A DNA stretch of 64,000 nucleotides. It comes from Leptospira biflexa (GTDB taxonomy: Bacteria > Spirochaetota > DYNZ01). Of the stretch, positions 2,973 to 54,891 are shown piece after piece. Both the position numbers and the translations under genes were made by a program. The stretch's first letter is position 1; each line of letters begins with the position of its first letter. The stretch is from NCBI GenBank assembly GCA_020720805.1, contig DYNZ01000004.1, forward strand, positions 19,103-83,102, given 5' to 3'. The notes beneath the pieces are model-generated. The model was not told the DNA's origin and did not search any database. It was given only the letters and a program-made list of their open reading frames with translations.

Positions 2973-4259
2973 ATGATTAAAAAAAAGTATAATATTTGGG
3001 AACAATTTTTTAAGAATTTTTCTGTAACCTACATTGGCTATGGAAAGTTTTTATACTATCATCGTAATCCCCGCACAAAGAAAATTAAATATGGAAAAAT
3101 TGATTTTACCACTCCAAAAGCGAAATTGGCACTCTCCTCCTTGATTAGTCTTTCGATCGTTTCCTCTTTTCTTTTTGTGCAGTTTCGTAAAGATACGCTA
3201 ACGGCAAAACCACATAAAACGGAAAATTCTCCTAAGATATCCCATGATAAAGATTCACAAATTACCCCCTTATTATCAGCAGAGGAGCTTCACCCAGAGG
3301 AAAAAAAGACAATCACCGGACTCATTTTAGAAGAGTCGCGTAAACTTCTGGATGCCTCAAAGCCTGGGGAGGAGTCCAGGCCAGAGCCTAAGGATAAGGG
3401 CAATACTTTAGACCAGGAAAAGCTCAAATCCCTGTCAGGTAAATCTGATATTGCTACCAGTATCGACGATGAGGATACGGAAAAATTAAAACGAAGTACT
3501 TTATTATCCGATGACACTCGCTTTATTCCTGAGCAGGAAAACAAAAAGGTAAAAATTTACCAATATACTGTCAAAAAGGGCGATAGTGTTGGATCATTGG
3601 CTCGTAAGTTTGGGATTTCTGCGGATACCATCGGAGGAAGTTCCGGAAAAATCATGAATATGGATGAAATCTGGCCTGGTTTGACGCTAAGTATTCCCAG
3701 CCGCGATGGAATTCTGTACAAGATGAAAAAAGGAGAGACATTAGCTCACATCGCGAATCGTTACGGTGTAGCATTGGCAAAAATTCTTGCCGTCAACGCA
3801 TTTGATGACCCTGATAATATTCCTGTAGGCAACCTTATTTTTCTTCCTGATATCAAGCCAAGAAACCTGTTTACAGGATTTCTCTGGCCTGTTGGGGGTA
3901 GAATTACCAGTCTGTATGGTTGGCGGCGTCACCCATTTGTAAATAGTTACCATTTTCATGAAGGTCTTGACCTATCAGCTCCCTATGTAAGCGTCAGAGC
4001 AGCAAAATCTGGAAAAGTTACCTTTTCTGGTTGGATGGGATCTTATGGTATGGTTGTCATTTTATCGCATCCGAACAACTACAAGACAATGTACGCTCAT
4101 AATTCCAGACTCTATGTTCGCGTAGGACAGTATGTTCGTCAGGGGCAGGTAATTTCGCAATCCGGCAGCACTGGGCGAAGTACAGGACCACATGTGCATT
4201 TTGAGATTTGGAAAAATAATCGACCCATGAACCCACTCGCATTACTCCGTAAAAGATAG
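2973..4259 (+). CDS. LysM-domain M23 family metallo-endopeptidase (NlpD/Csd-like). It has an N-terminal TM segment and a low-complexity linker.
   Basis: Two LysM-like modules (YTVKKGDSVGSLARKFGIS and YKMKKGETLAHIANRYGVALAKILAVN). C-terminal M23 motifs HEGLDL...MYAHNS...GSTGRSTGPHVHFEI. Confidence 0.8.
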   Translation: MIKKKYNIWEQFFKNFSVTYIGYGKFLYYHRNPRTKKIKYGKIDFTTPKAKLALSSLISLSIVSSFLFVQFRKDTLTAKPHKTENSPKISHDKDSQITPLLSAEELHPEEKKTITGLILEESRKLLDASKPGEESRPEPKDKGNTLDQEKLKSLSGKSDIATSIDDEDTEKLKRSTLLSDDTRFIPEQENKKVKIYQYTVKKGDSVGSLARKFGISADTIGGSSGKIMNMDEIWPGLTLSIPSRDGILYKMKKGETLAHIANRYGVALAKILAVNAFDDPDNIPVGNLIFLPDIKPRNLFTGFLWPVGGRITSLYGWRRHPFVNSYHFHEGLDLSAPYVSVRAAKSGKVTFSGWMGSYGMVVILSHPNNYKTMYAHNSRLYVRVGQYVRQGQVISQSGSTGRSTGPHVHFEIWKNNRPMNPLALLRKR

Positions 4260-4585: not shown

Positions 4586-5884
4586 TTGGAATTAAATCAG
4601 GAGCAAAAAAAGGTCGTCTATTCGCCGATTGGCTGGAAACGTCTGCTAGCTTGCGCCGGATCCGGAAAAACAACCGTCCTCATCCAACGGGTTTTGTACC
4701 TCATATCCCAAGGGATGAAACCCAGCCGGATATTACTTATCACATTTACCCGCAAATCTGCACGGGAGATGCGATTACGGCTGCGTAGAATGCTGCCTGA
4801 TGGTTCCGAGTATCCCTGGGCTGGTACCTTCCACTCCCTGGCATTTCAGTTATTGCGCAGTTATAACACGATAGCCGATTACTCTCTGCTAAAGGATGGG
4901 GAGGAGGAGGAACTCAAAATGAGCATCGCTTCTCTCTATCAAAATAAGTTATTGTACATCCCTTATGATCTTTTAGCGAACATTAGAAAGCAAAGCGGAC
5001 TGCCTCTTTTTGTGAAGAATATTTATGAAGATTTCTCGCAGAAATTTCATGAGACCAAACGAACGCGCAAACAGATTGGTTTCGATGATTTTTTGCCACT
5101 TCTGTTGAAAGAATGGCAAGAAAATGAAAGTTATAGAAAAGATTTTTCAAATAGATTTGATGCAATTCTAGTAGATGAGTTCCAAGATACCAATCCCGAG
5201 CAGATCGAATTTTTGCAGAAATTTTTAATGCGAAGTCACGATTTTCTTGCTGTTGGTGATGATTGGCAGGCTATATATGGATTTCGTAATGCGGATATGA
5301 CAGTGTTAACCAGGTTCGAAAAATTTTTTCCAAACAGCAAAACATTTTTTTTAACCATGAACTATCGCTCAACTCCTCAAATTATACAAACAGCGAATCG
5401 AGTTTTGGCGTTAAATCGTGAAAAGGTGAAAAAAAAGATGAAGTCTGTTCTACCTGCCGGTTCTGAGGTCCATTTTTATTTTTTTGAGAATAGGAATGAG
5501 TTGCAAAAATGGATATCGGATGCCTGGGTTATGGGAACCAAAATCAGTAAAGAAAAGAAAACAATTTTATGCAGAACAAATGTGCAGTGCAATTTTTTTC
5601 TTCCCGCAGAATCGGAGACGGTAAGTGCTATGACGATCCATCAGGCAAAAGGTTTGGAATTTGATCATGTGCTTGTGGCCGCTTTGGAAGACCATGTTTT
5701 CCCGCATAGGGATGCGGATATCGAGGAAGAACGCCGTCTGCTATTCGTGGCACTTTCCCGGGCAAAAAAAAAGCTGGAGATCGGAATTATAAAAAGCCAT
5801 TTGTCGGTAGAAAAGCAGTTTTCGCGCGAATTGGGTTACGGAATCGTTAACCCTTTTGCATACTCTGAATTTGCTGAATCATAG
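4586..5884 (+). CDS. Compact UvrD/PcrA-like superfamily-1 helicase. It is 432 aa, and the 1B/2B accessory domains appear largely absent.
   Basis: All SF1 motifs sit in compressed order: Q (LNQEQKKVV), I (AGSGKTT), Ia (TFTRKSAREM), II (VDEFQD), III (GDDWQAIYGFRNAD), IV (NYRST), V (IHQAKGLEFDHV), VI (EERRLLFVALSRAKKKL). TTG start. Confidence 0.7.
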   Translation: MELNQEQKKVVYSPIGWKRLLACAGSGKTTVLIQRVLYLISQGMKPSRILLITFTRKSAREMRLRLRRMLPDGSEYPWAGTFHSLAFQLLRSYNTIADYSLLKDGEEEELKMSIASLYQNKLLYIPYDLLANIRKQSGLPLFVKNIYEDFSQKFHETKRTRKQIGFDDFLPLLLKEWQENESYRKDFSNRFDAILVDEFQDTNPEQIEFLQKFLMRSHDFLAVGDDWQAIYGFRNADMTVLTRFEKFFPNSKTFFLTMNYRSTPQIIQTANRVLALNREKVKKKMKSVLPAGSEVHFYFFENRNELQKWISDAWVMGTKISKEKKTILCRTNVQCNFFLPAESETVSAMTIHQAKGLEFDHVLVAALEDHVFPHRDADIEEERRLLFVALSRAKKKLEIGIIKSHLSVEKQFSRELGYGIVNPFAYSEFAES

Positions 5885-7391
5885 TCTGAATCTCATCAGG
5901 ATAAATTCCCTGTTGCTGAGCCCCTTCTAATACCCGTAAAGCTTCCTGGTAATTTCCCTGGTTGGCGTACGAGACTCCGGCATATAACCAGGCATCGTGG
6001 TAGCTGGTTTTGAGGTCGATAGCTTTTTCCATCTGGGCTGCTGCCTCGTGGAGGTTACCTAAACGGTAGTTCAATAAACCAAGTTTAAAAAAGATATCAG
6101 GTTCGCCAGGAAAATGAAGAAGAACTTTTTTATAGGTCTGTAAGGCAGCTTCATTTTTCTCCAAATGGAGCAAGGTATCGCTATAAAATAATAGACTTTC
6201 TGTATCGTCTGGGTTAATGGAGATGGCTTTTTCCAGATCCTGTAAAGCTTTTGAGAAATTTTTATTTTTATACGCCTCCATACCACTATTTTTGATCGTT
6301 GCAAATTCCTCCGCACTCTGCTGCAACTGCAGTTCAGGCTCTGAGGAAAGATCTTTGTCGAGCTCTGAGGTGATATCCAGATCGTCGTTCAGGGGAAAAT
6401 TAGCCTCTTTCGTGGTGATGGCAGGTTGCATATTCGCATCCAGGTCAATTGAGTCCGCATCAATATCGAGATCAATGTCATCCTCGGTTAATTCACCGAG
6501 ATCATGGAACTCCTCTGCCTGGCCAATCGCTTCAGGATTGGCTACTTTTTTTTGCTCCGATGCAAAAACAGGGTCAGGTAGCTGCTCTCTATCATTAGAC
6601 TCCACAATTCTTTCCGAACTTTGCAGCGCTTCCAGCTCTTCCATCGCGTTTTCATAGGCATCTGCCAGGTGATCAATTTCCTCTGCTAAAATACCAAAAT
6701 CATCATTGTTATAGTAATAGGTTCTGGTGTTCCACTTGCCCATGTTAATGTCATGGAGCGTGGTAAGCAGAATTTTTACAGGAGAAACAGTGTAATGTAT
6801 AAGGATGAAGTAGAGAGCGATGGCCAGGAGAAGAAAAAGGAGAGCACCCAGGGCTATTTTTAGCCAAAAAAAAGGAGCTACCTGTGAGAAACTGCTGATA
6901 GCGTTCTGATTTTCAAAAAGGATTCCAAGGATCCAATGCTTGTCATGGCTGGCACCTGAAATCGAGAGATAAATACGGCTCGAATAGCTGGCAGTTAAAG
7001 AGCTGTAACCTTTTGCGGCAATCTCAGATTGGAGCTGCTTCCAGAATAGGGCATTTTTATCATTCTTGAAATTTTCAGGAAGAGTCATCTGGCCAGATTG
7101 GGCTGCAAGGTCACCCTTCTGGTCAAAAATGATAAAATCATAAACTCCGAGTTTTAGGAGTACCTTTTTTAACTCTTCCTGTCTATCAGGAGAAATCGCG
7201 TTATTTTTCCAAAGCCCCTCTTTTTTGAGTATTGGTCGAATTCTATCCTGAACAATGTGCGGAAGTGATTCCGAATACAGCGCAGCGTATGCCTGAAGAG
7301 AATTTTTACGAATGCTCATACCAATGAGAATAAAAGTAGTCATTAGGATTATGGCAAAAATAAGATGAAAAAGGAACAATTTCGATTTCAT
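5847..7391 (-). CDS. Membrane-anchored sensor-like protein with a C-terminal TPR array. Architecture is TM1, periplasmic-like domain, TM2, HAMP-like helix, acidic low-complexity linker, then TPR repeats.
   Basis: Two hydrophobic segments (aa ~8-27 and ~180-200). A HAMP-like segment VSPVKILLTTLHDINMGKW...GILAEEIDHLADAYENAMEEL. A D/E-rich linker. C-terminal TPR-like repeats (ALQDLEKAISINPDD..., YKKVLLHFPGEPD..., AQMEKAIDLKTSYHDAW...). Confidence 0.65.
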   Translation of the reverse strand: MKSKLFLFHLIFAIILMTTFILIGMSIRKNSLQAYAALYSESLPHIVQDRIRPILKKEGLWKNNAISPDRQEELKKVLLKLGVYDFIIFDQKGDLAAQSGQMTLPENFKNDKNALFWKQLQSEIAAKGYSSLTASYSSRIYLSISGASHDKHWILGILFENQNAISSFSQVAPFFWLKIALGALLFLLLAIALYFILIHYTVSPVKILLTTLHDINMGKWNTRTYYYNNDDFGILAEEIDHLADAYENAMEELEALQSSERIVESNDREQLPDPVFASEQKKVANPEAIGQAEEFHDLGELTEDDIDLDIDADSIDLDANMQPAITTKEANFPLNDDLDITSELDKDLSSEPELQLQQSAEEFATIKNSGMEAYKNKNFSKALQDLEKAISINPDDTESLLFYSDTLLHLEKNEAALQTYKKVLLHFPGEPDIFFKLGLLNYRLGNLHEAAAQMEKAIDLKTSYHDAWLYAGVSYANQGNYQEALRVLEGAQQQGIYPDEIQTMIQQIQSMQKG

Positions 7392-11275: not shown

Positions 11276-11497
11276 ATGATATCAGAGCAAAAACAGAAAA
11301 TGTTAGATTTGTATAATCAGGGCATGAATCATTACAAGGAAAGAAATTGGTCTAAGGCCAAGGACTTTTTTTCTCAGGCGCTTACGGTAGTTCCGAATGA
11401 CGGCCCAAGCAAATTGTATGTTTATAGATGTGAACAGTATGAAAAAACATCTCCGCCAGCGGATTGGAATGGTGTTTTTATTATGACTACGAAATAG
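11276..11497 (+). CDS. Small TPR-like hypothetical protein.
   Basis: 73-aa ORF with one TPR-like helix pair (YNQGMNHYKERNWSKAKDFFSQALTVVPND). It lies between the polyprenyl synthase and bactofilin 2. Coding status is uncertain. Confidence 0.35.
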   Translation: MISEQKQKMLDLYNQGMNHYKERNWSKAKDFFSQALTVVPNDGPSKLYVYRCEQYEKTSPPADWNGVFIMTTK

Positions 11498-11508
11498 GAG
11501 AGATTGCG

Positions 11509-11892
11509 ATGGGTAAAAAATTAAGAGCTGATCTGGCAGAAGTATTAATGGATCATGGCGGAAGCATCGCAACCATTTTAGGAGAGAAAACCGAATTTGA
11601 AGGTGTTATGGAATTTGAAAATTCCATCCAGATTGATGGGATTTTTAAAGGGGAGATCAAAACACCTGGGCTGGTTGTGATTAATGATGGTGCGTTGATT
11701 AAGGCCAATATCGATGCATCGATCGTCATTCTCGCAGGTGAGGTGGAGGGAAATATCCGGGCAACGGATAAGGTGATTATCCTCTCGGGCGGTAAATTAA
11801 AAGGAAATATCAAAACGGCAAAATTGAAGATATCTGATGGGGTGGTCTTTGATGGTAATTGCGAGATGATTAAATGGGAAAAAAGCGCATAA
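11509..11892 (+). CDS. Bactofilin, paralog 2.
   Basis: Bactofilin repeats (GEKTEFEGVMEFENSIQIDGIFKGEI...NIDASIVILAGEVEGNIRATDKVIILSGGKLKGNI). ATG at 11509 is preferred over the upstream in-frame 11464 start because an AGGAGAG RBS lies 7 nt upstream. Confidence 0.8.
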   Translation: MGKKLRADLAEVLMDHGGSIATILGEKTEFEGVMEFENSIQIDGIFKGEIKTPGLVVINDGALIKANIDASIVILAGEVEGNIRATDKVIILSGGKLKGNIKTAKLKISDGVVFDGNCEMIKWEKSA

Positions 11893-46010: not shown

Positions 46011-48413
46011 TTAGTCTATCATGTAATTAACATAATTGGCAAATATTTTTTTATAATACTCTCTGGTTTCCAGAAATGGTATTGTTTCCCCTAGTAACAT
46101 GACGTTTTCCGAACTGTAACGTCGTTCCCAAATTATTGCAGTACCTGGTCCAGCATTATAGGCACTGCTAAGCCAGAGAAGATTTCCTCCAAACCGGCGG
46201 TTTTGCTGTCTGATATAATTAGTTGCGGAGAGGATGGAAATTTCTGGATCATTCAGGTTGGGGGGATCAAAGCCGAGTCTTTTTGCGATCGGTTGCCCTG
46301 TTAGGGGCATTAATTGCATCAAACCTATTGCCCCCGCAGAGGACGAGATACGTTCGATAAAGGCTGATTCTGCTTTCATGATCGCCCAAATTAACTCTGG
46401 ATCCACATGAAATCTGGATGAAGCAGATTCTACGATATTTTTATATGGCTTGGCAAAGGCGCTCTGCTTAAGAATTTTTTTCAATGTTCCTGAACATATT
46501 CGATAATTTCCATGGGTTTTGAAAATTTTTAGTGCTTGCAATAAGCTCTGATCGGCATCGGAAAGATGGCTACTCAGGCTCATGAGCAAAAGATGATGCT
46601 GTTCTTTGGAGAGATTTCTTTCTAGGATATCATCGGCTATTTGGTATAATCCAATTTTTGCAAAGATTCCAGCATCAATCGAGGGAGAGTTTTTTCCCTC
46701 AAAGATTTTAGACAAATCGGGCAAAAGAATATCATTTTGGGGGCAATGTTGTTTGTATGAGAATGGGTAGGAAATGATCTCCTGCTGTAACCCTGGCATT
46801 GCAATAGCCCTGTTAACATCATCATTCAGATAGTGGAATAGAGGTTTACTTGCAAGGAGGATGTTGAGTTTTTCCAAATAGCGAACGGTACTATCAGATA
46901 AGGTAAGGTTGCTTTTTTGCAGAATAGGGTTGGTTTTATCTTTTAGCAAGCTTGTAAATTTTTTTCTATTGTTGTTCTGAAGGTAGATTGCAGCCAATAG
47001 TGAATAGTAACTGTAATGATCTCGCTGTAGTAAAGGGTAAAGATAGTAGCTAAGATTTTCGAAACGGTTGGCTCCAAGCGAGATTGCTGACCAGAATAAA
47101 AGTCGTTCTGTTAGCTGATGAGGAGGAATATTTTTCCATAACTCCTTGCTAAAGGAGGCGGCTTTGATCCAATCCTGGTTTTTTATAAAATGAAAAATAT
47201 GGTGCCAATAGACGTTATCAATATATGGACGGCTGCTTCTATCTTTCAGAAATATTTGAAAACTCTCATGGAGGATTGAATTTGAGTTAATCGGTCCGCG
47301 TGAAGCTAATGTGACCAGTAACTGCAATTTTGTGAAAAATTCACCCTTGTAAGAGTGTTTATTGAATAGGGTGAGTATATCGTTTGCTTGTGAATAGAAA
47401 AGTCTATATTTTTTTTTCTGCAATAATCTTCGTTGACTATTGATAAATATTGTTCCGGCTTCTTGCTGATTTTTCTCCCAAATTTTTTCTGCCAATACAG
47501 CTGGCCAAGTTGTGTCGATAAAAAAATTTCTCTGCTCTAAACGGGCTTGCAAAAATAGTATATCCTGGTCTCGAATAGCAATACTATCAAGAATTTGTTT
47601 CGCTTCATTTTTTAATCCTGATTGAAACAAAATAATGGCAGCTTGGCAAAGAATGGATGGCTCCTGGCGAAATTCTTTGGAATTTTTCGCAATTTCACGG
47701 GACGCAATCTTTTTCATCCAGAATGGGTTTTCGCCCTGTAGTATTATTCGGTATTGATCGACTGCTTTTTGAGATTGTCCTTGCTTGTTATAAATTGTGG
47801 CAAGTTTTAGGCGATTCACGGTAAAACGTTCTGCCAGATGATGAAATATCGCCGATGCTTTTTCGTATTGTTTTTCAAAAATTAATTTTTCGCCAGTTAG
47901 ACGCTGAAATTCATTTGATAGAAACGGGTTTTCCACATCAGAAAAAAGATTGATTACAGCCATGCTGCCGTTGTACAAGCCAAAATCCTGAAGAATATCG
48001 CTGATATAGATAGCGGCGTAAGGTGCCAGGGGAGAAAGTGTAGTTGTTCTCATGTATGTTACAATTTCCTGATTTGCGATACGCTTTGGTGTAGAGTCTC
48101 CCTTTTGGGCGGATGCAGATTTCAGAAAAGCGAACAGTGCTTCCTTCTTTTGGTTTTGTTTCCATAAGGCGTAACCTTCCAGAAAGGATAAGGCGTAATG
48201 TTTGGATGACTGTCTTTTTAGGGCTGCGGCAACCGGTATCCACTGCTCCTGCTTTACCCAGGATCTGATTTTCGGGTTTAAATAGATTTTCTGCCACTCT
48301 TGAAAATCGATAGCTTTGATTTCACCTCGCCCTGAACAACTTGCGGATGAAAGGAAGAGCAAAAGCGTTAAAAGCACCATAAAAAAGGTTGATTGTAAGG
48401 TAGTTTGATTCAT
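46011..48413 (-). CDS. Soluble lytic murein transglycosylase (Slt70-like): a superhelical N-terminal domain plus a C-terminal SLT domain.
   Basis: Signal peptide. Long alpha-helical repeat region. C-terminal SLT catalytic motifs ES.F......S.AGA.GLMQLMP and AYNAGPG. 800 aa. Confidence 0.8.
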   Translation of the reverse strand: MNQTTLQSTFFMVLLTLLLFLSSASCSGRGEIKAIDFQEWQKIYLNPKIRSWVKQEQWIPVAAALKRQSSKHYALSFLEGYALWKQNQKKEALFAFLKSASAQKGDSTPKRIANQEIVTYMRTTTLSPLAPYAAIYISDILQDFGLYNGSMAVINLFSDVENPFLSNEFQRLTGEKLIFEKQYEKASAIFHHLAERFTVNRLKLATIYNKQGQSQKAVDQYRIILQGENPFWMKKIASREIAKNSKEFRQEPSILCQAAIILFQSGLKNEAKQILDSIAIRDQDILFLQARLEQRNFFIDTTWPAVLAEKIWEKNQQEAGTIFINSQRRLLQKKKYRLFYSQANDILTLFNKHSYKGEFFTKLQLLVTLASRGPINSNSILHESFQIFLKDRSSRPYIDNVYWHHIFHFIKNQDWIKAASFSKELWKNIPPHQLTERLLFWSAISLGANRFENLSYYLYPLLQRDHYSYYSLLAAIYLQNNNRKKFTSLLKDKTNPILQKSNLTLSDSTVRYLEKLNILLASKPLFHYLNDDVNRAIAMPGLQQEIISYPFSYKQHCPQNDILLPDLSKIFEGKNSPSIDAGIFAKIGLYQIADDILERNLSKEQHHLLLMSLSSHLSDADQSLLQALKIFKTHGNYRICSGTLKKILKQSAFAKPYKNIVESASSRFHVDPELIWAIMKAESAFIERISSSAGAIGLMQLMPLTGQPIAKRLGFDPPNLNDPEISILSATNYIRQQNRRFGGNLLWLSSAYNAGPGTAIIWERRYSSENVMLLGETIPFLETREYYKKIFANYVNYMID

Positions 48414-48753
48414 GAGGCAGTTTACTTTCTATTTTTTAAAAATAGGGCATGGTGAGATCAAAAATTTGGTTATAAATAGGTTTTCATGTTGTAGTGTTTG
48501 CTATTAACAAGAATAAACCGGTTTCCCTTATGGTCATGCTACCCAAATTAACTATTTATATAGCACTTTAGCGCTGCAGGCTTTGGGAGACCAATTTATT
48601 TATGACAATTATGCCAGAAAGAGCGAAGAGCTCTTTCTGGGCCATGTAAATCTAAAACATTTACAAATTTTTATCGTATAATCTTAAAAGAATGAGAGAA
48701 TCATACCGAAAAAAATTTGTTTTTTATTGCCTTTTTCTGTAAATATGGTTTTT

Positions 48754-48811
48754 ATGTATCCAGACTAGTTCGGATACATAGCAATGAAAGTGGAAAAAAC
48801 ACTTTCATTGC
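48754..48811 (+). promoter_or_regulatory. Two tandem perfect hairpins in the 451-bp intergenic region upstream of the hypothetical/bactofilin/pdxA gene string.
   Basis: Hairpin 1 is atgtatcc (10-nt spacer) ggatacat, an 8-bp stem at 48754-48779. Hairpin 2 is gcaatgaaagtg (loop gaaaaaa) cactttcattgc, a 12-bp perfect stem at 48781-48811. No upstream co-directional gene is present for them to terminate. Confidence 0.3.
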
Positions 48812-48864
48812 AGAATACAACGATCCAAACAGGAATTCAACTATTTTTCTTATTTTAATGGTCT

Positions 48865-49611
48865 ATGGGCACTGATTTACACAAAGAAGAGATTGCGCGT
48901 ATCGAAGAGGTGGCTCACGAGCTGGCATTAATTTTAAACACAGTAAAGAGTCCTGCTCAGATAAGCCGTATCCAGAGGAACCTTGAATCATTTAGTAATC
49001 GATATAAGGAGTTGACAGGGAACGATTTATCGGAGACAATTCTCTCTAAATCGTCCGATTCAAGCCAGGTTTTAACAAAAAGCAGATTTCTGTCTAAAAT
49101 AAGAATTGAGCGTGCCTCCCCTCATTGTGAGTACCATGAGATAAATCTAATCTCATCCATTGTTAAAGAGTTTGAGGTCAACTACTGGAGCCTTCTTAGC
49201 GACAGGCATATAAAGCTGGATTACTCAACGGCATCGGAGCGGGACTCCTATTTTACCAAGCTGGAAGAGTTCAAACGCAACTTAAAATTGATCCTGGAAA
49301 ATATTGAAGAGGCGCATCGGACCCAGTCTCGTGAATATCTAGCAAGATTAAGAACGATGCGTATCAAACAGGAGAGGCAAATATTGCTTGAATTTCATGA
49401 TTTCTTTCGTTCTATCAGTCAGTTTCTTGAAAAAATTGTCTTGAATCTTGATGAGGGGAGCAATATCGTACTCAATTCCGACGAAATGGTCACCTATGAC
49501 CGTCATGATGGAAAACCTTATTTTAAAGGGAAAAGTGTTGCTGAGGCAGTGCGTATGATTTATGAGTTTACAAAGGAGTCCGCAGAATCGATCCGGGTTC
49601 CGGATCTATAA
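48865..49611 (+). CDS. Hypothetical protein, predicted alpha-helical, with no recognisable domain.
   Basis: 248-aa ORF on the same strand, 57 nt upstream of bactofilin 3. Coding-like composition. Confidence 0.55.
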   Translation: MGTDLHKEEIARIEEVAHELALILNTVKSPAQISRIQRNLESFSNRYKELTGNDLSETILSKSSDSSQVLTKSRFLSKIRIERASPHCEYHEINLISSIVKEFEVNYWSLLSDRHIKLDYSTASERDSYFTKLEEFKRNLKLILENIEEAHRTQSREYLARLRTMRIKQERQILLEFHDFFRSISQFLEKIVLNLDEGSNIVLNSDEMVTYDRHDGKPYFKGKSVAEAVRMIYEFTKESAESIRVPDL

Positions 49612-49667
49612 ACGTATTTCAGGAAAAACATAATTCATGATAAGAGTGAATCAATAAAGGTAAAGAT

Positions 49668-50120
49668 ATGGCATTAAGTAGAACATCTTCAGAAATGGTA
49701 AATAGCTCTATCGGAGAGGACTCCTTCTTCATGGGAAGATTCCATATCAACGGATCTCTCCGGGTGAATGGACGGTTCGAGGGAAAAACGTTGCAGGCTG
49801 AGCAGTTATATGTTGGCGCAACCGGAAAGATCAAAACGAATATTCGCGCTGTTTCCGTGATTGTCGAGGGAATGATCATAGGCAATGTAGAAGCCAGCAG
49901 CCGAGTTATGCTTTTGCCGACAGCCCGCATTCTGGGAAATATTAAGACTCCGGAATTGATAATCCAGAATGGGGTAATCCTCGAAGGGCAGGTTACCATA
50001 ACTCCAAGCCAGGATAGTTCAGCAAAGGAGATGATTGAATCTGAGTTTGGTGATGATTTTATTCCTCAGGTCTCCCTTTTTTCTGAATATCATGATCCGA
50101 AAAAACAGAAAAAGAGTTAA
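49668..50120 (+). CDS. Bactofilin, paralog 3.
   Basis: Bactofilin repeats (SIGEDSFFMGRFHINGSLRVNGRFEGK...TGKIKTNIRAVSVIVEGMIIGNVEASSRV). The stop overlaps the pdxA start (TAATG). Confidence 0.8.
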   Translation: MALSRTSSEMVNSSIGEDSFFMGRFHINGSLRVNGRFEGKTLQAEQLYVGATGKIKTNIRAVSVIVEGMIIGNVEASSRVMLLPTARILGNIKTPELIIQNGVILEGQVTITPSQDSSAKEMIESEFGDDFIPQVSLFSEYHDPKKQKKS

Positions 50121-51232
50121 TGAACGAATCTATGCAACCCCATCCAAGAAAGAGCTCCGGGATTCCTGTTATCGGAATCACTGCTGGCGATCCTGGAGGT
50201 ATCGGCCCAGAGGTGGTTGCCAAGGCTCTTGAAAATTTAAAAAATAGTGGGAGAACAGGTAAAAAGGGGAGCCTTCCCTGGGATTTTATTCCTGTAATTC
50301 TGGGTGACTCACTTTTTTTTGAGTCCTTTCTATCCAACAATCATGATCTTTTCAAAATCCTAAAAAAATTTGATTTAGGAAAAATGGCAGGGGCTCTTGA
50401 GGTTTTATTGCGGAGCGGCAGGGGTATCTTTCTGGATCTAGGCAACTCTTTAGAGCACAAAACCATAGGAAAAAGTACGGACGAAAATGCCAGGGCATCC
50501 TATTCCTACTTCCGTACTGCGGTAGAATTGGATCAAAAGGGTTTCCTGGATGGCATTGTCACAGGTCCGGTTAATAAGGGTGCGATTAATGGAGCGGGAA
50601 TTCCTTTTGTAGGGCACACGGAAGAGTTTATTCGTCTCATCTCTGATCGGGAGCCGGTACGTCCCTATATGCTTATGCATAGTCATGTCATTAATGTCAT
50701 TCTGTTAACGACACACCATCCGGTTCGAGATATAGAAAAAATTTTGTCCCCTGATCATAGTTATGAGGCTGTCCAGGCGGCAGCAGCATTTTTACGCATG
50801 ATCCATAAAAAAGAGCCGCTCATCGCGTTTTTGGGAATTGATCCCCATGTCGGGGATAAGGGAGCAATTGGAACGATTGATCATACTTTTTCTATCCCGC
50901 TGATCCAAGAGATGAATAAAAGGGGATTGGCTGTGGAAGGACCATTCGCGGCTGATAGCTTTTTTTCAAAAAAAAATCTTGAAAAATATAATCTTATCAT
51001 TTCGGCCTACCACGATCAGGGATTGATCCCTTTCAAAATGTTGAGTTTTGGAAAAGGGGTGAACGTTACCCTGAACTTGCCCCTGCGGCGTACTTCGCCA
51101 GATCACGGAACTGCCTACGAGCTTGCCGGAACCGGTAGCGCTGATGCTGGCAGTATGGTAGAGGCAATCCAGCTCTGCCGGCTCTGGATCCGAGCTGAAA
51201 AGAGCAATCCCGTAATTGGACAAAGTGAGTAA
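50120..51232 (+). CDS. pdxA: 4-hydroxythreonine-4-phosphate dehydrogenase.
   Basis: IGITAGDPGGIGPEV and HTEEF...H.. metal-binding motifs. 370 aa with a short N-terminal insertion. Confidence 0.85.
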   Translation: MNESMQPHPRKSSGIPVIGITAGDPGGIGPEVVAKALENLKNSGRTGKKGSLPWDFIPVILGDSLFFESFLSNNHDLFKILKKFDLGKMAGALEVLLRSGRGIFLDLGNSLEHKTIGKSTDENARASYSYFRTAVELDQKGFLDGIVTGPVNKGAINGAGIPFVGHTEEFIRLISDREPVRPYMLMHSHVINVILLTTHHPVRDIEKILSPDHSYEAVQAAAAFLRMIHKKEPLIAFLGIDPHVGDKGAIGTIDHTFSIPLIQEMNKRGLAVEGPFAADSFFSKKNLEKYNLIISAYHDQGLIPFKMLSFGKGVNVTLNLPLRRTSPDHGTAYELAGTGSADAGSMVEAIQLCRLWIRAEKSNPVIGQSE

Positions 51233-51671
51233 ATCTATGCTATCCTCGGAAATCGTTGTTTTTATCTATATCCTCTGGTTTTTGGCAGTTCTTTTCTGGC
51301 TATTGCGGCGCGGTATAGAGTTAATCTGGAAGCTGGCTGCGGTTGCTGCATTTGCTGCCCATCTCTATTTTCAGTATCCTGTTTTTTTGAAGGTTTGGCA
51401 GGAGATTGAAAGTGATTACGTTCAATTTCTTATGAAATTTACTGTCTCGCTTGGCAAAACCTTTTTTGAACTCTGGAGTGCAATCTGGATGATTGTCATG
51501 GTGGCTGTATTCTATATGGTAAATGAGTTGGCTGCTGAAAAATGGGTTAAAACACTGTTCTTTTTAACGCTCCTAGTTTGGGCAATTTGGTTTGTGAATT
51601 TTTTTTACGGAAAAGAGATAGGAGAATACCTGGGAAAAGAGATTCCAGCCTTTTTCCCTCGAAATTCCTGA
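51216..51671 (+). CDS. Hypothetical membrane protein.
   Basis: 151 aa with 3-4 hydrophobic helices. It overlaps the pdxA stop by 17 nt. Confidence 0.5.
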   Translation: MDKVSKSMLSSEIVVFIYILWFLAVLFWLLRRGIELIWKLAAVAAFAAHLYFQYPVFLKVWQEIESDYVQFLMKFTVSLGKTFFELWSAIWMIVMVAVFYMVNELAAEKWVKTLFFLTLLVWAIWFVNFFYGKEIGEYLGKEIPAFFPRNS

Positions 51672-51820: not shown

Positions 51821-52237
51821 ATGAGTCCGATTATGGAAATTGAAAAGGATATCATTACAAAAAATGAGTATGAAATTCCAGATTTTAAGGTGGGGGATAC
51901 CATCAAGGTTCACCAAAAAATCGTGGAAGGAAATAAGGAGCGAATTCAGGTATTTGAAGGCGTGGTCATCGCTCGCAATAACAAGGGAAATAGTAAGACT
52001 TTTACAGTAAGACGAGTTTCTTATGAGGTGGGTGTTGAGCGGGTGTTCCCATTATTCACACCCAGGATCGCTCGTTTGGAGATTGTGAGAAGAGGCCGGG
52101 TTCGCCGCGCTAAATTGTATTTTCTCCGTGATAAAATTGGTAAAGCGGGGCGTATTCGTGAGAAAAAAGGGGCATGGAACATTTTGGCCGCCAAAGCCAA
52201 AAACACAGAAGCTGCCTCAACTGAAGCAGAGGTCTAA
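51821..52237 (+). CDS. rplS: 50S ribosomal protein L19 with a C-terminal extension of about 20 aa.
   Basis: [28 protein letters not shown]....FTVRR.S.GVGVER.FPL and [17 protein letters not shown] match L19. Confidence 0.9.
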
Positions 52238-52895
52238 TCCCATAACAGACAGTAATCCCCTGAGAAGCCTTGATCAGGTCATAGATTTTGCCGCACTTGG
52301 CAACAAGAGGTGGGTGGCTGGAATTGATGAGGTTGGCAGGGGTGCCTGGGCAGGTCCCATGACTTTGGCAATGGTTATAAGAGCTGTTCCAGAGGCCTTT
52401 GTATCACTGGATAAACGGATTACAGATTCCAAGAAGGTTCATCTAGGAGTGCGACCGGCATTAGCCAGGATGATTAAGAGTAAAGCCGCACTTACCAGAT
52501 TTGCCTGGTGCCGGTCGGAGGAAATCGACCTCTATGGATTAACTCAGAGCACCATTAGCGCGGTTATGTACCTTCTCGATAAGGTTCCGAAAATAATGCA
52601 GGGCGATTTAATGGTTTGTTTGGATGGTCGCTGGAACATTTCCCATTCCATACCTGTCTTATCCATCATTAAGGGAGATTCGCTTGTTCCTGTTATTTCC
52701 GAAGCTTCGATTCTTGCTAAGGTAGCCCGTGACCGCTACATGGAGATACGGGGATCAGCATTTCCTCAATATGGCTGGGCTCAAAATAAGGGGTATGGTA
52801 CAGCTCATCATAAAAATGCTTTGAAACAATGGGGAATATCACCTTACCATAGAAAGAGTTATCAGCCAATTCAGTCGCTTTTAGCAACACCATAG
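52128..52895 (+). CDS. rnhB: Ribonuclease HII. The start is uncertain: the first in-frame start is GTG 52128, which overlaps rplS by about 110 nt.
   Basis: Catalytic motif [16 protein letters not shown] and downstream D/E residues. No ATG occurs between the L19 stop and the catalytic motif. Confidence 0.75.
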
Positions 52896-52907: not shown

Positions 52908-53210
52908 ATGGAAGCATTCTTTAAATTCATAATCAAATATGCAGTTCTCGTCGCGATTGCAGCTGCAGTGTCGTGGTATTTTTACTATTTTCGACGTAAG
53001 GACATTTTTGGTAAATTTGCTGGAGGAATGGTTGTAGCTATTTTGGGCGCCATTATCTTTGATCTAATTTTTACACTTCACTTCATGAAAGAGATTCTGG
53101 ATTTTTTAACCACCAGAACCTATGTGCATATCCCAGGAGCGTTTTTAGGTGGTTTTCTTGCTCTTTATGTTCTTAACAAGATCAACCACGATCAGGATCG
53201 CCGCAATTAA
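52908..53210 (+). CDS. Small membrane protein, possibly GlsB/YeaQ/YmgE (transglycosylase-associated) family-like.
   Basis: 100 aa with two hydrophobic helices carrying small-residue GxxxG-like motifs (FAGGMVVAILGAIIF). Confidence 0.4.
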   Translation: MEAFFKFIIKYAVLVAIAAAVSWYFYYFRRKDIFGKFAGGMVVAILGAIIFDLIFTLHFMKEILDFLTTRTYVHIPGAFLGGFLALYVLNKINHDQDRRN

Positions 53211-53211
53211 C

Positions 53212-54891
53212 TTAGAAAACGGCATGGGTGATCCAGGCGTTGCTCTCTTTGCCAGGTTCTACCCCCTGTAAAAAGTCTTCCAGACGCAGAAATGGTCGGA
53301 GAAATAGCCAGCGCTCTTTTCTTTTTTTACCGATTCCAGGTAATCTGCTTATCGACCCCGAGGAGATAGAGTTGATATAGATTGGGATGGGTATTCCTAC
53401 CAGGGACCTTTGCTCGTGGTCTATGATACAGAGATCATATTTTTGATAGATTTCAAGATCAGCAAATATTTTACAGGTGATGGGATAGCTAGACAGGGGG
53501 CGCCCCAGCGTGTAGCCATTTTCCAGTTTTTCGATCAGAACATTTCTTAGAATTGTGCCCGCAGGAAAGACAAGTTTCAACATTGGTGTATCGATCTCTT
53601 CTCGAATCTTCTGTTTAAAGTAAAGAAATCTATTCCTCAACCGAGTATTTATTTTACTGGCCATGCCAGCCTCTGCCAACTCTGTATCCTGGTGAGTCAC
53701 GACTTGTCGAATGTTGATTCGCCTTAATAAAACGCCTTCTTCTAACACTTGTTTCAAAAAGCGATAGTTCATCTCAAATGTACCCTCCCGTTCGGCTTTT
53801 AATCCATGGATTAGATTGATTCCAGGAAGCAAAGCAGGTAGCCCTTCGCGTCGGTGACCGCCGCACTGATTGATAAGATGGACCACCTCCATTGCTTGTA
53901 CGCTATCCACTTTCAGGCGATTTGCCGCAATTACCTCAGGATCAACACTTTCGATGCCAAGAGCTGCTGTGTCGCCAGGTGAATTCATGGATGCAATGGC
54001 AGTAAGGATTTCTCTGGATTCCATAGGAAAGTGGGCAATCGTACCGGGGTTTACATTGTCAAGGTGCAGTAGCTGGATACCAGGCGTGGAACTTATAGCA
54101 CGATAGAGGTCAATTACCGCTTTGGGTTCTGGTTTTGGGAAACTGGATTGAAATATCTCCAATCTGCTCTGGTAGGCCAGAATATCCGCCTGTCGACCCA
54201 AACGAAAAAAGAAGATGCCAACCTCTATCAGAGCGGAAACCTCGCGGTGAATGTCTGCAATTTCGCGGAAATGAACAGAGCCGTATAGTTTTTCTGTGCA
54301 GAATGAACAGAATTGGTTGCGAGGACAGCCGCGATAGGTTTCGATTTCAGCGATGATATGGGGATAAAACCGCGCTTGACGGCTGATCTGGGCGCCGAGC
54401 AAACTCCAATGGCTGACTTCATGGTTGCTACGTCGGGCTCGCAATTCCAAAGCGTCGGGAATCTCTCTAGTCTTCGTCCAATTGTAGGCAATTTTCTCCA
54501 GGTCTCCTGGGCAAATATGGATATTTTGGTGGTTGATTGTCTCTTGTTGCCAGATTCTTGCCAGGGAAAAGGGACCACCAAGAAAAATAGGGCTTTTTTG
54601 ATAGCGGATATTTTGGAATAACTGCAGAAGTTCGGCGATGGTTCCTATGCGCGTTGCCAGGTATTTGCCGGGGACTGTTGAGCCTCCGAAAATAAAAAGG
54701 GCATCGTACTCTTTGCTTAGAGAAAAACCATTATCTCGCAAGGAATCGATATGAATATAATCAATTTCCTCCCAGTCGAGGCCGCCAGCGCGCAGCGCTC
54801 CAGCGATATAACGGCTATAAGGGGAGAGAAAGGGTGGAACCCCGAGACAAGTAGGTTCGTCAACATAAAAATCGAGAATGGCAACTGGCAT
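53212..54891 (-). CDS. Putative radical SAM-type enzyme with a non-canonical Cx5Cx2C cluster motif and an N-terminal Rossmann/B12-like domain.
   Basis: ETYRGCPRNQFCSFC lies in an Fe-S context. N-terminal region DALFIFGGSTVPGKY. 559 aa. Confidence 0.55.
   Translation of the reverse strand: MPVAILDFYVDEPTCLGVPPFLSPYSRYIAGALRAGGLDWEEIDYIHIDSLRDNGFSLSKEYDALFIFGGSTVPGKYLATRIGTIAELLQLFQNIRYQKSPIFLGGPFSLARIWQQETINHQNIHICPGDLEKIAYNWTKTREIPDALELRARRSNHEVSHWSLLGAQISRQARFYPHIIAEIETYRGCPRNQFCSFCTEKLYGSVHFREIADIHREVSALIEVGIFFFRLGRQADILAYQSRLEIFQSSFPKPEPKAVIDLYRAISSTPGIQLLHLDNVNPGTIAHFPMESREILTAIASMNSPGDTAALGIESVDPEVIAANRLKVDSVQAMEVVHLINQCGGHRREGLPALLPGINLIHGLKAEREGTFEMNYRFLKQVLEEGVLLRRINIRQVVTHQDTELAEAGMASKINTRLRNRFLYFKQKIREEIDTPMLKLVFPAGTILRNVLIEKLENGYTLGRPLSSYPITCKIFADLEIYQKYDLCIIDHEQRSLVGIPIPIYINSISSGSISRLPGIGKKRKERWLFLRPFLRLEDFLQGVEPGKESNAWITHAVF

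Follow-up and report, generated by a model that had tools for sequence, protein, structure and literature searches.

Introduction

Bactofilin genes are often paired with genes for M23 endopeptidases. For example, bacA and lmdC of Hyphomonas overlap by 17 base pairs and their protein products interact (PMC10945521), and the essential bactofilin gene bbbG of Borrelia burgdorferi has the M23 gene bb0246 immediately ahead of it and shares a transcript with the gene after it, bb0244 (PMC13393453). In this study, we examined a cluster of four genes in a stretch of 64,000 nucleotides (nt) of Leptospira biflexa DNA (contig DYNZ01000004.1; the whole stretch is called the window below), in which a bactofilin gene overlaps pdxA, a gene for an enzyme of the 4-hydroxythreonine-4-phosphate dehydrogenase family that would act in the synthesis of pyridoxal 5′-phosphate (PLP). 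The bactofilin gene is the third of three paralogues in the window and is called bactofilin 3; it is preceded by a gene for a 248-amino-acid (aa) helical protein (hyp), and pdxA is followed by a gene for a small membrane protein (mem). The cluster is a variant of the bactofilin–hydrolase module, set apart by an overlapping pdxA that is almost invariant and had gone unremarked, and by two conserved genes that are uncharacterized. We lean toward the view that it would be the local representative of a bactofilin morphogenesis operon that is old in spirochetes and passed down vertically, with pdxA as a translationally coupled passenger expressed at a low level.

The likeness to described bactofilin–M23 modules (BacA-LmdC of Hyphomonas and Rhodospirillum, BbbG/BB0246 of Borrelia, and LbbD of Leptospira) lies in the pairing of a bactofilin gene with a peptidoglycan hydrolase gene, and 27 of 46 loci orthologous to this one carry a divergent LysM-M23 gene upstream. 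However, the invariant partner here is pdxA rather than a hydrolase gene, the hydrolase encoded next to bactofilin 3 in the window is an SLT transglycosylase, and two further conserved genes, hyp and mem, reside in the cluster. A further related system is that of Helicobacter pylori, wherein the bactofilin CcmA shapes the helical cell together with membrane proteins and M23-type hydrolases (Csd1, Csd2, Csd5 and Csd7) (PMC9507126). Csd5 and Csd7 have no sequence relationship to Hyp or Mem, and that system has no pdxA.

A pdxA gene that sits between functionally unrelated genes for the envelope and for growth, and is expressed with them on their message, is known from the E. coli operon lptD(imp)-surA-pdxA-ksgA(rsmA)-apaG-apaH (PMC2731931, PMC3384335). 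An earlier note on this DNA, made from the sequence alone, had called the coupling of a cytoskeletal scaffold to a PLP-biosynthesis enzyme unusual, which is apt for the partner but not for the principle, given this precedent. Compared with the E. coli operon, the partners and the phylum are different, and pdxA would here be a downstream, dependent gene whose predicted ribosome-binding site and start reside inside the coding sequence of the cytoskeletal gene. In E. coli, pdxA is said to overlap the neighboring ksgA, as Roa et al. reportedly described in 1989. A gene related to vitamin B6 is also conserved within a cytoskeletal and division operon of Gram-positive bacteria, namely ylmE (YggS) in ftsZ-ylmD-ylmE-sepF-divIVA (PMC5943314). 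YlmE, however, binds PLP and is not biosynthetic, and no such overlap is known for those genes. Bactofilin and pdxA are named together in no paper of the library that we searched, and their linkage appears to be new to the literature.

Results and Discussion

Conservation of the gene cluster

The open reading frames (ORFs) of hyp (48865–49611), bactofilin 3 (49668–50120, 150 aa) and pdxA (50120–51232, 370 aa) are present on the forward strand as the earlier note gave them, and Pfam confirms the bactofilin (PF04519, E = 3e-24) and PdxA (PF04166, E = 4.6e-76) assignments. The gap between hyp and the bactofilin gene had been given as 57 nt, although the interval (49612–49667) counts 56. Downstream of pdxA, mem (51237–51671, forward strand) encodes 144 aa. 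These four genes had been proposed to form a single unit, with conservation of their order across related genomes suggested as a check, and the order is indeed conserved in close as well as distant relatives.

In the three close relatives on readable contigs, all four genes occur in the same order, and in L001–L003, whose contigs are long enough, rplS and rnhB follow mem as they do in the window. The junctions of the close relatives are gaps of 5–21 nt between bactofilin and pdxA and of 6–14 nt between pdxA and mem. Two loci whose Hyp proteins are only 29–32% identical to that of the window (P0008 and P0152) again have hyp, bactofilin and pdxA in this order, but in different surroundings, with a divergent LysM-M23 peptidase gene and a GGDEF protein gene upstream and mem one gene further down. 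At P0006 and P0012, where Hyp is in the same range of identity, hyp is followed by bactofilin and then by the end of the contig. Among distant loci, whose flanks differ, the order is kept in L090, L092 and L174. Of these, L174 comes from a metagenome-assembled genome (MAG) named "Spirochaetes bacterium" and reads M23 (reverse strand), bactofilin, pdxA, mem and a TPR protein gene, without hyp.

A larger sample was obtained by scanning metagenomes with two bactofilin-core peptides as the query, and pdxA thus could not bias the recovery of loci. The peptides rest on an alignment of six orthologous bactofilins that are 58–80% identical to bactofilin 3 of the window, and the scan yielded 80 loci encoding 66 distinct bactofilin proteins, which were annotated with hidden Markov models made from the sequences of the window cluster and its relatives. 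The context available was the 64-kilobase (kb) window and locus flanks of at most 13 kb. A contig identical to the window is present in metagenome 3300000234 of the Joint Genome Institute (JGI) and in run SRR1560848.

Among the 77 loci with at least 300 nt beyond the bactofilin stop, pdxA is the next gene in 76. The sole exception, L140, has 604 nt (1769–2372) without a PdxA-like ORF and then a mem gene, and pdxA may have been lost or moved in this lineage. The other members are frequent rather than fixed: hyp lies directly upstream of bactofilin in 30 of 62 testable loci, mem follows in 42 of 52 (in 25 as the gene right after pdxA), and a divergent hydrolase gene is found upstream in 38 of the 46 loci with at least 3.5 kb of flank (LysM-M23 in 27, SLT in 11). 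All four genes occur together in 26 of the 80 bactofilin-ascertained loci. Where hyp is absent, the upstream gene encodes a methyltransferase, cyclophilin, metallo-beta-lactamase-fold protein, NUDIX hydrolase, histidine kinase, cyclase or IlvD. We considered whether such genes might be hidden homologues of hyp, and rejected this because they belong to unrelated families. Since the upstream neighbors vary in this way, the bactofilin–pdxA pair seems to have been kept while its surroundings were rearranged.

It might be argued that four unrelated genes have simply come to be packed tightly in a compact genome, as bacterial genes are often closely packed with short overlaps and the exact TAATG sequence at which bactofilin 3 and pdxA meet is not kept even in the closest relatives. 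We give this explanation almost no credence, because the pair is retained in nearly every locus of independent context and because none of 80 control PdxA loci from other phyla (mostly Bacteroidota, at most 38% identical, among the matches listed) has an adjacent bactofilin gene. Even within 6 kb, only two of the 80 listed control loci have one. Chance adjacency is therefore refuted by the conservation data.

The linked PdxA proteins are themselves highly diverged. The 55 unique full-length sequences have pairwise identities of 25%–99% (median 36%) and fall into 12 clusters at 50% identity, whereas the bactofilin orthologues, at 56–80% identity, are the slowest-evolving component of the cluster. 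In a neighbor-joining tree, a single branch parts all linked PdxAs from 40 sampled PdxAs of other phyla, and the PdxA of the one Leptospiraceae genome (L091) groups among the bactofilin-linked proteins. The divergence of PdxA together with this single branch suggests that the pair is old, and fits vertical inheritance since early spirochete evolution rather than repeated recruitment. Judged by gene order and phylogeny, the four genes are a real and ancient spirochete cluster with a fixed core of bactofilin and pdxA.

The start of pdxA within the bactofilin gene

In the window, the bactofilin stop codon TAA (50118–50120) and the pdxA start codon ATG (50120–50122) share one A, and the TAATG overlap (50118–50122) noted earlier is borne out by the sequence. 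The translational coupling that had been read from it needs to be recast, however, as the overlap is real whereas TAATG itself is a local, relaxed form of the junction. In most lineages, the sole possible pdxA start is a TTG codon located 413 nt after the bactofilin ATG and 8–38 nt ahead of the bactofilin stop, which places it inside the 3′ end of the bactofilin gene. Independent gene calls agree with this internal start. In the window and in most lineages, pdxA begins at or before the bactofilin stop, with its predicted ribosome-binding site inside the bactofilin ORF.

The consensus of 56 distinct junction sequences is AAGAACAAGATAATCCCCGAGGAGTTTC-TTG. It includes a Shine-Dalgarno motif, GAGGAG, at positions −10 to −5, which ends 4 nt before the TTG and is written in the codons of the bactofilin tail residues ..KNKIIPEEFL... 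At the two Glu positions beneath this motif, GAG occurs 63 times and GAA 15 times, compared with 436 GAG and 817 GAA codons elsewhere in the same bactofilin and pdxA genes (odds ratio 7.9, by a Fisher test uncorrected for shared ancestry). This codon bias indicates selection acting on the junction at the nucleotide level. In the clade to which the window belongs, the bactofilin tail is about ten residues longer and pdxA starts with ATG; QV, AI or PI has taken the place of EE, and upstream of the 1-nt overlap in the window there is only a purine-rich AAGAG. Taken together, the GAGGAG motif, the preference for GAG and the decay of EE in the clade with a shifted start indicate constraint on this sequence as a ribosome-binding site, and the TAATG of the window is likely to be a relaxed descendant of a deeper and older overlap.

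In a separate set of seven loci (L138, L141, L145, L153, L159, L160 and L170), the pdxA TTG comes exactly after the bactofilin stop, with a start near position 5442 of the 10-kb loci. We also considered a bactofilin–PdxA fusion made by frameshifting. This candidate was set aside, as no fused ORF occurs in the loci and no protein of about 470 aa is found among the best 120 PdxA homologues.

If the operon has the structure that we favor, its core would consist of a specific bactofilin paralogue and of pdxA, the latter coupled in translation to the 3′ end of the bactofilin gene. Frequent accessory members would be hyp upstream, mem downstream and a divergent hydrolase gene, either for a LysM-M23 endopeptidase or, as in the window, for an SLT transglycosylase. 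Ribosomes translating or finishing bactofilin would hand initiation to pdxA, and PdxA, a low-abundance enzyme, would be made in a small, constant proportion to a cytoskeletal message that is linked to growth, much as the E. coli gene rides the lptD-surA-pdxA-ksgA envelope operon. A deeply conserved overlap of this type means that the ribosome-binding site and start codon of a B6 enzyme are written in the codons of the C-terminal tail of a cytoskeletal protein. With such dual coding, part of what looks like a conserved bactofilin tail motif may serve the translation of the neighboring gene rather than bactofilin function, and mutation or tagging of the bactofilin tail should allow for this.

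Identity and integrity of PdxA

The PdxA protein of the window aligns to the E. coli PdxA structures 1ps7 and 1ptm over the catalytic half. It carries the metal-binding and catalytic motifs of the E. coli enzyme (GHTE, TTH, PH.G, YHDQG and RTS.DHGTA), and residues H166, H199, H243, H298, D299, K153, R324, S326 and H329 (window numbering) are invariant in the 55 linked PdxAs. The catalytic residues are all kept, and the bactofilin-linked PdxA most likely still makes the PLP precursor. The family model TIGR00557 is the top match both for the window protein (275.7 bits, below the equivalog cutoff of 290.35) and for all 10 representative orthologues, five of which exceed the cutoff (292–330 bits).

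An alternative is that these proteins are PdxA-family dehydrogenases that operate outside PLP synthesis and oxidize another 4-phospho-hydroxy acid in an envelope-connected pathway. Known members of the family include D-threonate-4-phosphate and terephthalate-diol dehydrogenases, and the scores below the cutoff for the window protein and half of the representatives would be in keeping with such a role. Moreover, in the seven loci whose pdxA begins just after the bactofilin stop, the N-terminal Gly-rich motif GDPxGIGPE is changed to GDP[TS]SINYE, and the PdxA of one of them, L141, scores under the equivalog cutoff. Nevertheless, TIGR00557 is the best model for every representative, leading the D-threonate-4-phosphate dehydrogenase model by about 100 bits or more, and half of the representatives pass its cutoff. 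The residues aligned with the metal and substrate site of E. coli PdxA are without exception invariant, and no kinase or alternative-pathway companion gene appears in the Pfam-annotated neighborhoods. A function outside PLP synthesis is thus very improbable.

The N-terminal insertion that had been ascribed to this PdxA is real, although it is shorter than described and comprises nine residues (RTGKKGSLP, aa 45–53) in a variable loop. It is present only in the window and in two of three close relatives, while the third lacks it, as do the remaining bactofilin-linked PdxAs. The gene had also been referred to as a copy of pdxA, a designation that lacks support, as no second pdxA was found in the 64-kb window.

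Passenger or partner

A different explanation for the persistence of the pair is functional integration, wherein PdxA or its local product works within the bactofilin module. For example, PdxA might be recruited to the bactofilin polymer, or to Hyp or Mem, which would position or regulate the synthesis of the PLP precursor at sites of peptidoglycan remodeling, or it might have a second, non-enzymatic role there. The pair has survived in all but one testable locus in spite of the divergence of PdxA and the shuffling of its flanks, and at one locus (L091, described below) hyp abuts pdxA without bactofilin, which hints at a link between Hyp and PdxA. The retention of ylmE, a gene for a PLP-binding protein, in the ftsZ/sepF/divIVA operon of Gram-positive bacteria (PMC5943314) also offers a parallel. 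However, the absence of any fused ORF from the loci, and of any protein of fused length from the best 120 PdxA homologues, is not what integration would lead one to expect, and PdxA has no module-specific feature besides the variable loop. In addition, a start embedded in the upstream gene would by itself suffice for the pair to resist separation. We therefore regard integration as unlikely, if still the most serious rival to a passenger gene.

Several considerations count against the operon-and-passenger account that we favor. The conservation of the pair in 76 of 77 loci is stronger than a mere passenger predicts, and could equally reflect a direct functional tie. The operon structure and the translational coupling are inferred from spacing and sequence only, and a scan of the locus for promoters and terminators gave results equal to those for shuffled sequence and is uninformative. 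The odds ratio of 7.9 for GAG usage comes from a test that takes no account of common descent. Likewise, the role of PdxA in PLP synthesis is a prediction from sequence, and the window protein and five of the 10 representatives fall just under the PdxA equivalog cutoff. Finally, spirochete names are attached only to L091, L174 and L175 among the metagenomic loci.

The Hyp and Mem proteins

Hyp was described in the earlier note as an alpha-helical protein with no recognizable domain, and this description stands: it matches no Pfam or NCBIfam family and is predicted to be all-helical. It is soluble, with no hydrophobic segment and an isoelectric point of 6.1. Only four non-identical close homologues (47–61% identity) were found among 5.8 billion proteins. 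A profile from five Hyp sequences gave 137 matches among 1.84 billion cluster representatives, 95 of them below 1e-10 and most about 250–280 aa in length. A word-indexed search with the Hyp profile recovered six proteins only, and an exhaustive profile search was needed to reach the family. All members with a named source are spirochetes.

Purifying selection on Hyp, the lack of which had been put forward as a reason to discard the gene, is clear from the sequence comparisons. The rate of nonsynonymous substitution (dN) is 0.33–0.42 at saturated synonymous sites, and is lower than that of pdxA in the same genomes. Because synonymous sites are saturated in nearly all pairs, the values that can be reported are dN and three ratios of nonsynonymous to synonymous rates (0.09–0.20).

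An AlphaFold2 model of Hyp made from a 58-sequence alignment (predicted local distance difference test score, pLDDT, 91; predicted template modeling score 0.72) consists of an N-terminal helical hairpin, a disordered linker (residues 64–68, pLDDT below 50) and a C-terminal helical bundle. With Foldseek, the Protein Data Bank (PDB) yielded no match at E ≤ 0.001 for Hyp, and fold searches with two models gave generic helical bundles only. A sequence profile search of the PDB produced only designed or coiled-coil noise.

The tree of the Hyp family is divided into two halves, and every member that adjoins bactofilin or pdxA is in one of them. The other half includes proteins encoded at L089 (6001–6783) and L175 (5001–5792, from a MAG named "Spirochaetia bacterium"), which are about 20% identical to Hyp and whose genes lie just downstream of tandem flaA genes. 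The helical family thus has a second conserved context, with flagellar sheath genes. At L091 (P0018, from a Leptospiraceae MAG; 5001–6746), the hyp homologue, whose product is again 29–32% identical to Hyp of the window, abuts pdxA with a 0-nt gap and without bactofilin between them, and is preceded by genes for NfeD and two Band_7 proteins.

The suggestion that Hyp is a novel bactofilin-associated factor is therefore sound in so far as Hyp makes a good candidate, but several observations complicate it. Hyp might instead be tied to PdxA, or be a protein of the flagellum or of cell shape that has no more than the promoter region in common with the cluster. Such a role would account for the locus where pdxA follows hyp directly, for the absence of hyp from 32 of the 62 testable bactofilin–pdxA loci, and for the paralogues after flaA-flaA in the other half of the tree, and would be consistent with the resemblance of the upstream hydrolase to the flagellar-assembly protein BB0259 in the window and in several other lineages. 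However, all nine hyp-ascertained loci of the subfamily have bactofilin, pdxA or both adjoining hyp. Moreover, the gene is present in most major PdxA clades, and hyp is therefore probably an ancestral member of the cluster. We consider it rather unlikely that Hyp is no partner of bactofilin, and a credible interpretation of its distribution is that Hyp is an ancestral cluster member and a candidate partner. These genomic contexts fit a tie to PdxA, or a wider function in shape or the flagellum, as well as they fit a specific tie to bactofilin.

Mem had been thought to overlap pdxA by 17 nt. This overlap exists only if the ORF is started at a TTG codon (51216), which gives 151 aa, whereas the gene calls on the identical contigs have 144 aa, the length obtained from the in-frame ATG that lies 4 nt after the pdxA stop (51237). 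The 17-nt overlap is doubtful because this shorter form matches the lengths of the relatives (142–145 aa), whose N-termini align with it, and is probably an artefact of choosing the longest ORF. Mem belongs to a conserved family with three to four hydrophobic helices, as judged by hydropathy, and invariant charged residues (R24, E28, K32, E101 and K105) in the connecting segments. It matches no Pfam or NCBIfam family.

Few partners of spirochete bactofilins are known, and the cluster nominates Hyp and Mem as candidate partners or adaptors. They would be likelier physical partners of bactofilin than PdxA, and they may join a bactofilin without the canonical membrane-targeting peptide to the membrane and the periplasmic hydrolase. 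A bolder proposal is that Hyp, bactofilin, PdxA and Mem form one assembly at the cytoplasmic face of the membrane, opposite the periplasmic M23 or SLT hydrolase, in which the acidic bactofilin tail (IPEEFL) and Hyp would tether or regulate PdxA. We hold this to be quite improbable. If true, the synthesis of a B6 cofactor would be tied spatially or stoichiometrically to zones of peptidoglycan insertion in spirochetes, and the gene overlap would reflect co-assembly, beyond economy of expression.

Bactofilin 3 and its paralogues

Bactofilin 3 scores 85.5 bits against PF04519 (cutoff 27.9), with residues 14–109 covering positions 2–97 of the 98 in the model. It does not carry an N-terminal membrane-targeting peptide of the MFSKKKK type and begins instead with MALSRTSSEMVNSS. 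This peptide is not strictly defining for the bactofilin family, and the most prevalent N-terminal motif of Spirochaetota bactofilins differs from the MFSKKKK consensus (PMC12448750). The MALSR... N-terminus (MAL(S/T/A)) is conserved in the orthologues and supports the 150-aa start. In one JGI gene call for this protein (L007, 2867–3256), an internal Met start was chosen, giving 129 aa.

No M23 gene is immediately adjacent to bactofilin 3 in the window, where the neighbors are hyp and pdxA and the nearest hydrolase gene is that of the SLT enzyme. By comparison, an M23 gene is directly adjacent to the orthologue in loci such as L095–L100 and L174, and in L090 and L092 only hyp stands between the two. 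The classic bactofilin–M23 pairing does occur elsewhere in the window, where bactofilin 1 (2448–2870), a protein of 140 aa that is 43% identical to bactofilin 3, has a co-directional LysM-M23 peptidase gene (2973–4259) after it. A more divergent bactofilin gene (11464–11892), listed at 142 aa and 28% identical to bactofilin 3, is located between a polyprenyl synthetase gene and rpsB. The window thus carries three bactofilin paralogues in 64 kb, a number equal to that encoded by B. burgdorferi (PMC13393453).

Genes and features surrounding the cluster

The SLT lytic transglycosylase gene upstream of hyp (46011–48413, reverse strand; 800 aa; Pfam SLT, E = 1.1e-25) is divergent from the cluster. 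Its product resembles the flagellar-assembly transglycosylase BB0259 of Borrelia, with a score for NF047373 (146 bits) that is under the cutoff of 234, and the window encodes the flagellar sheath protein FlaA as well as this BB0259-like enzyme. The AT-rich intergenic region of 451 nt between the SLT gene and hyp (48414–48864) is the presumed home of divergent promoters. It includes three strong hairpins (48614–48640, 48753–48780 and 48781–48811) with arms of 11, 14 and 12 nt, two of which are perfect. None of these hairpins recurs elsewhere in the window or is conserved in relatives, and Rfam has no match for them.

Downstream of mem are rplS, rnhB and a gene for a 100-aa membrane protein. The longest ORF for rnhB (52128–52895), of 255 aa with a GTG start, would share 110 nt with rplS, and the true start is probably further downstream, given that 216 aa are called in relatives. 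The gene for the 100-aa membrane protein (52908–53210), an unassigned protein, follows rnhB and is also present in L001 and L002. A convergent gene for a likewise unassigned radical-SAM protein of about 560–600 aa (53212–54891) comes next, and is shared with L001 only.

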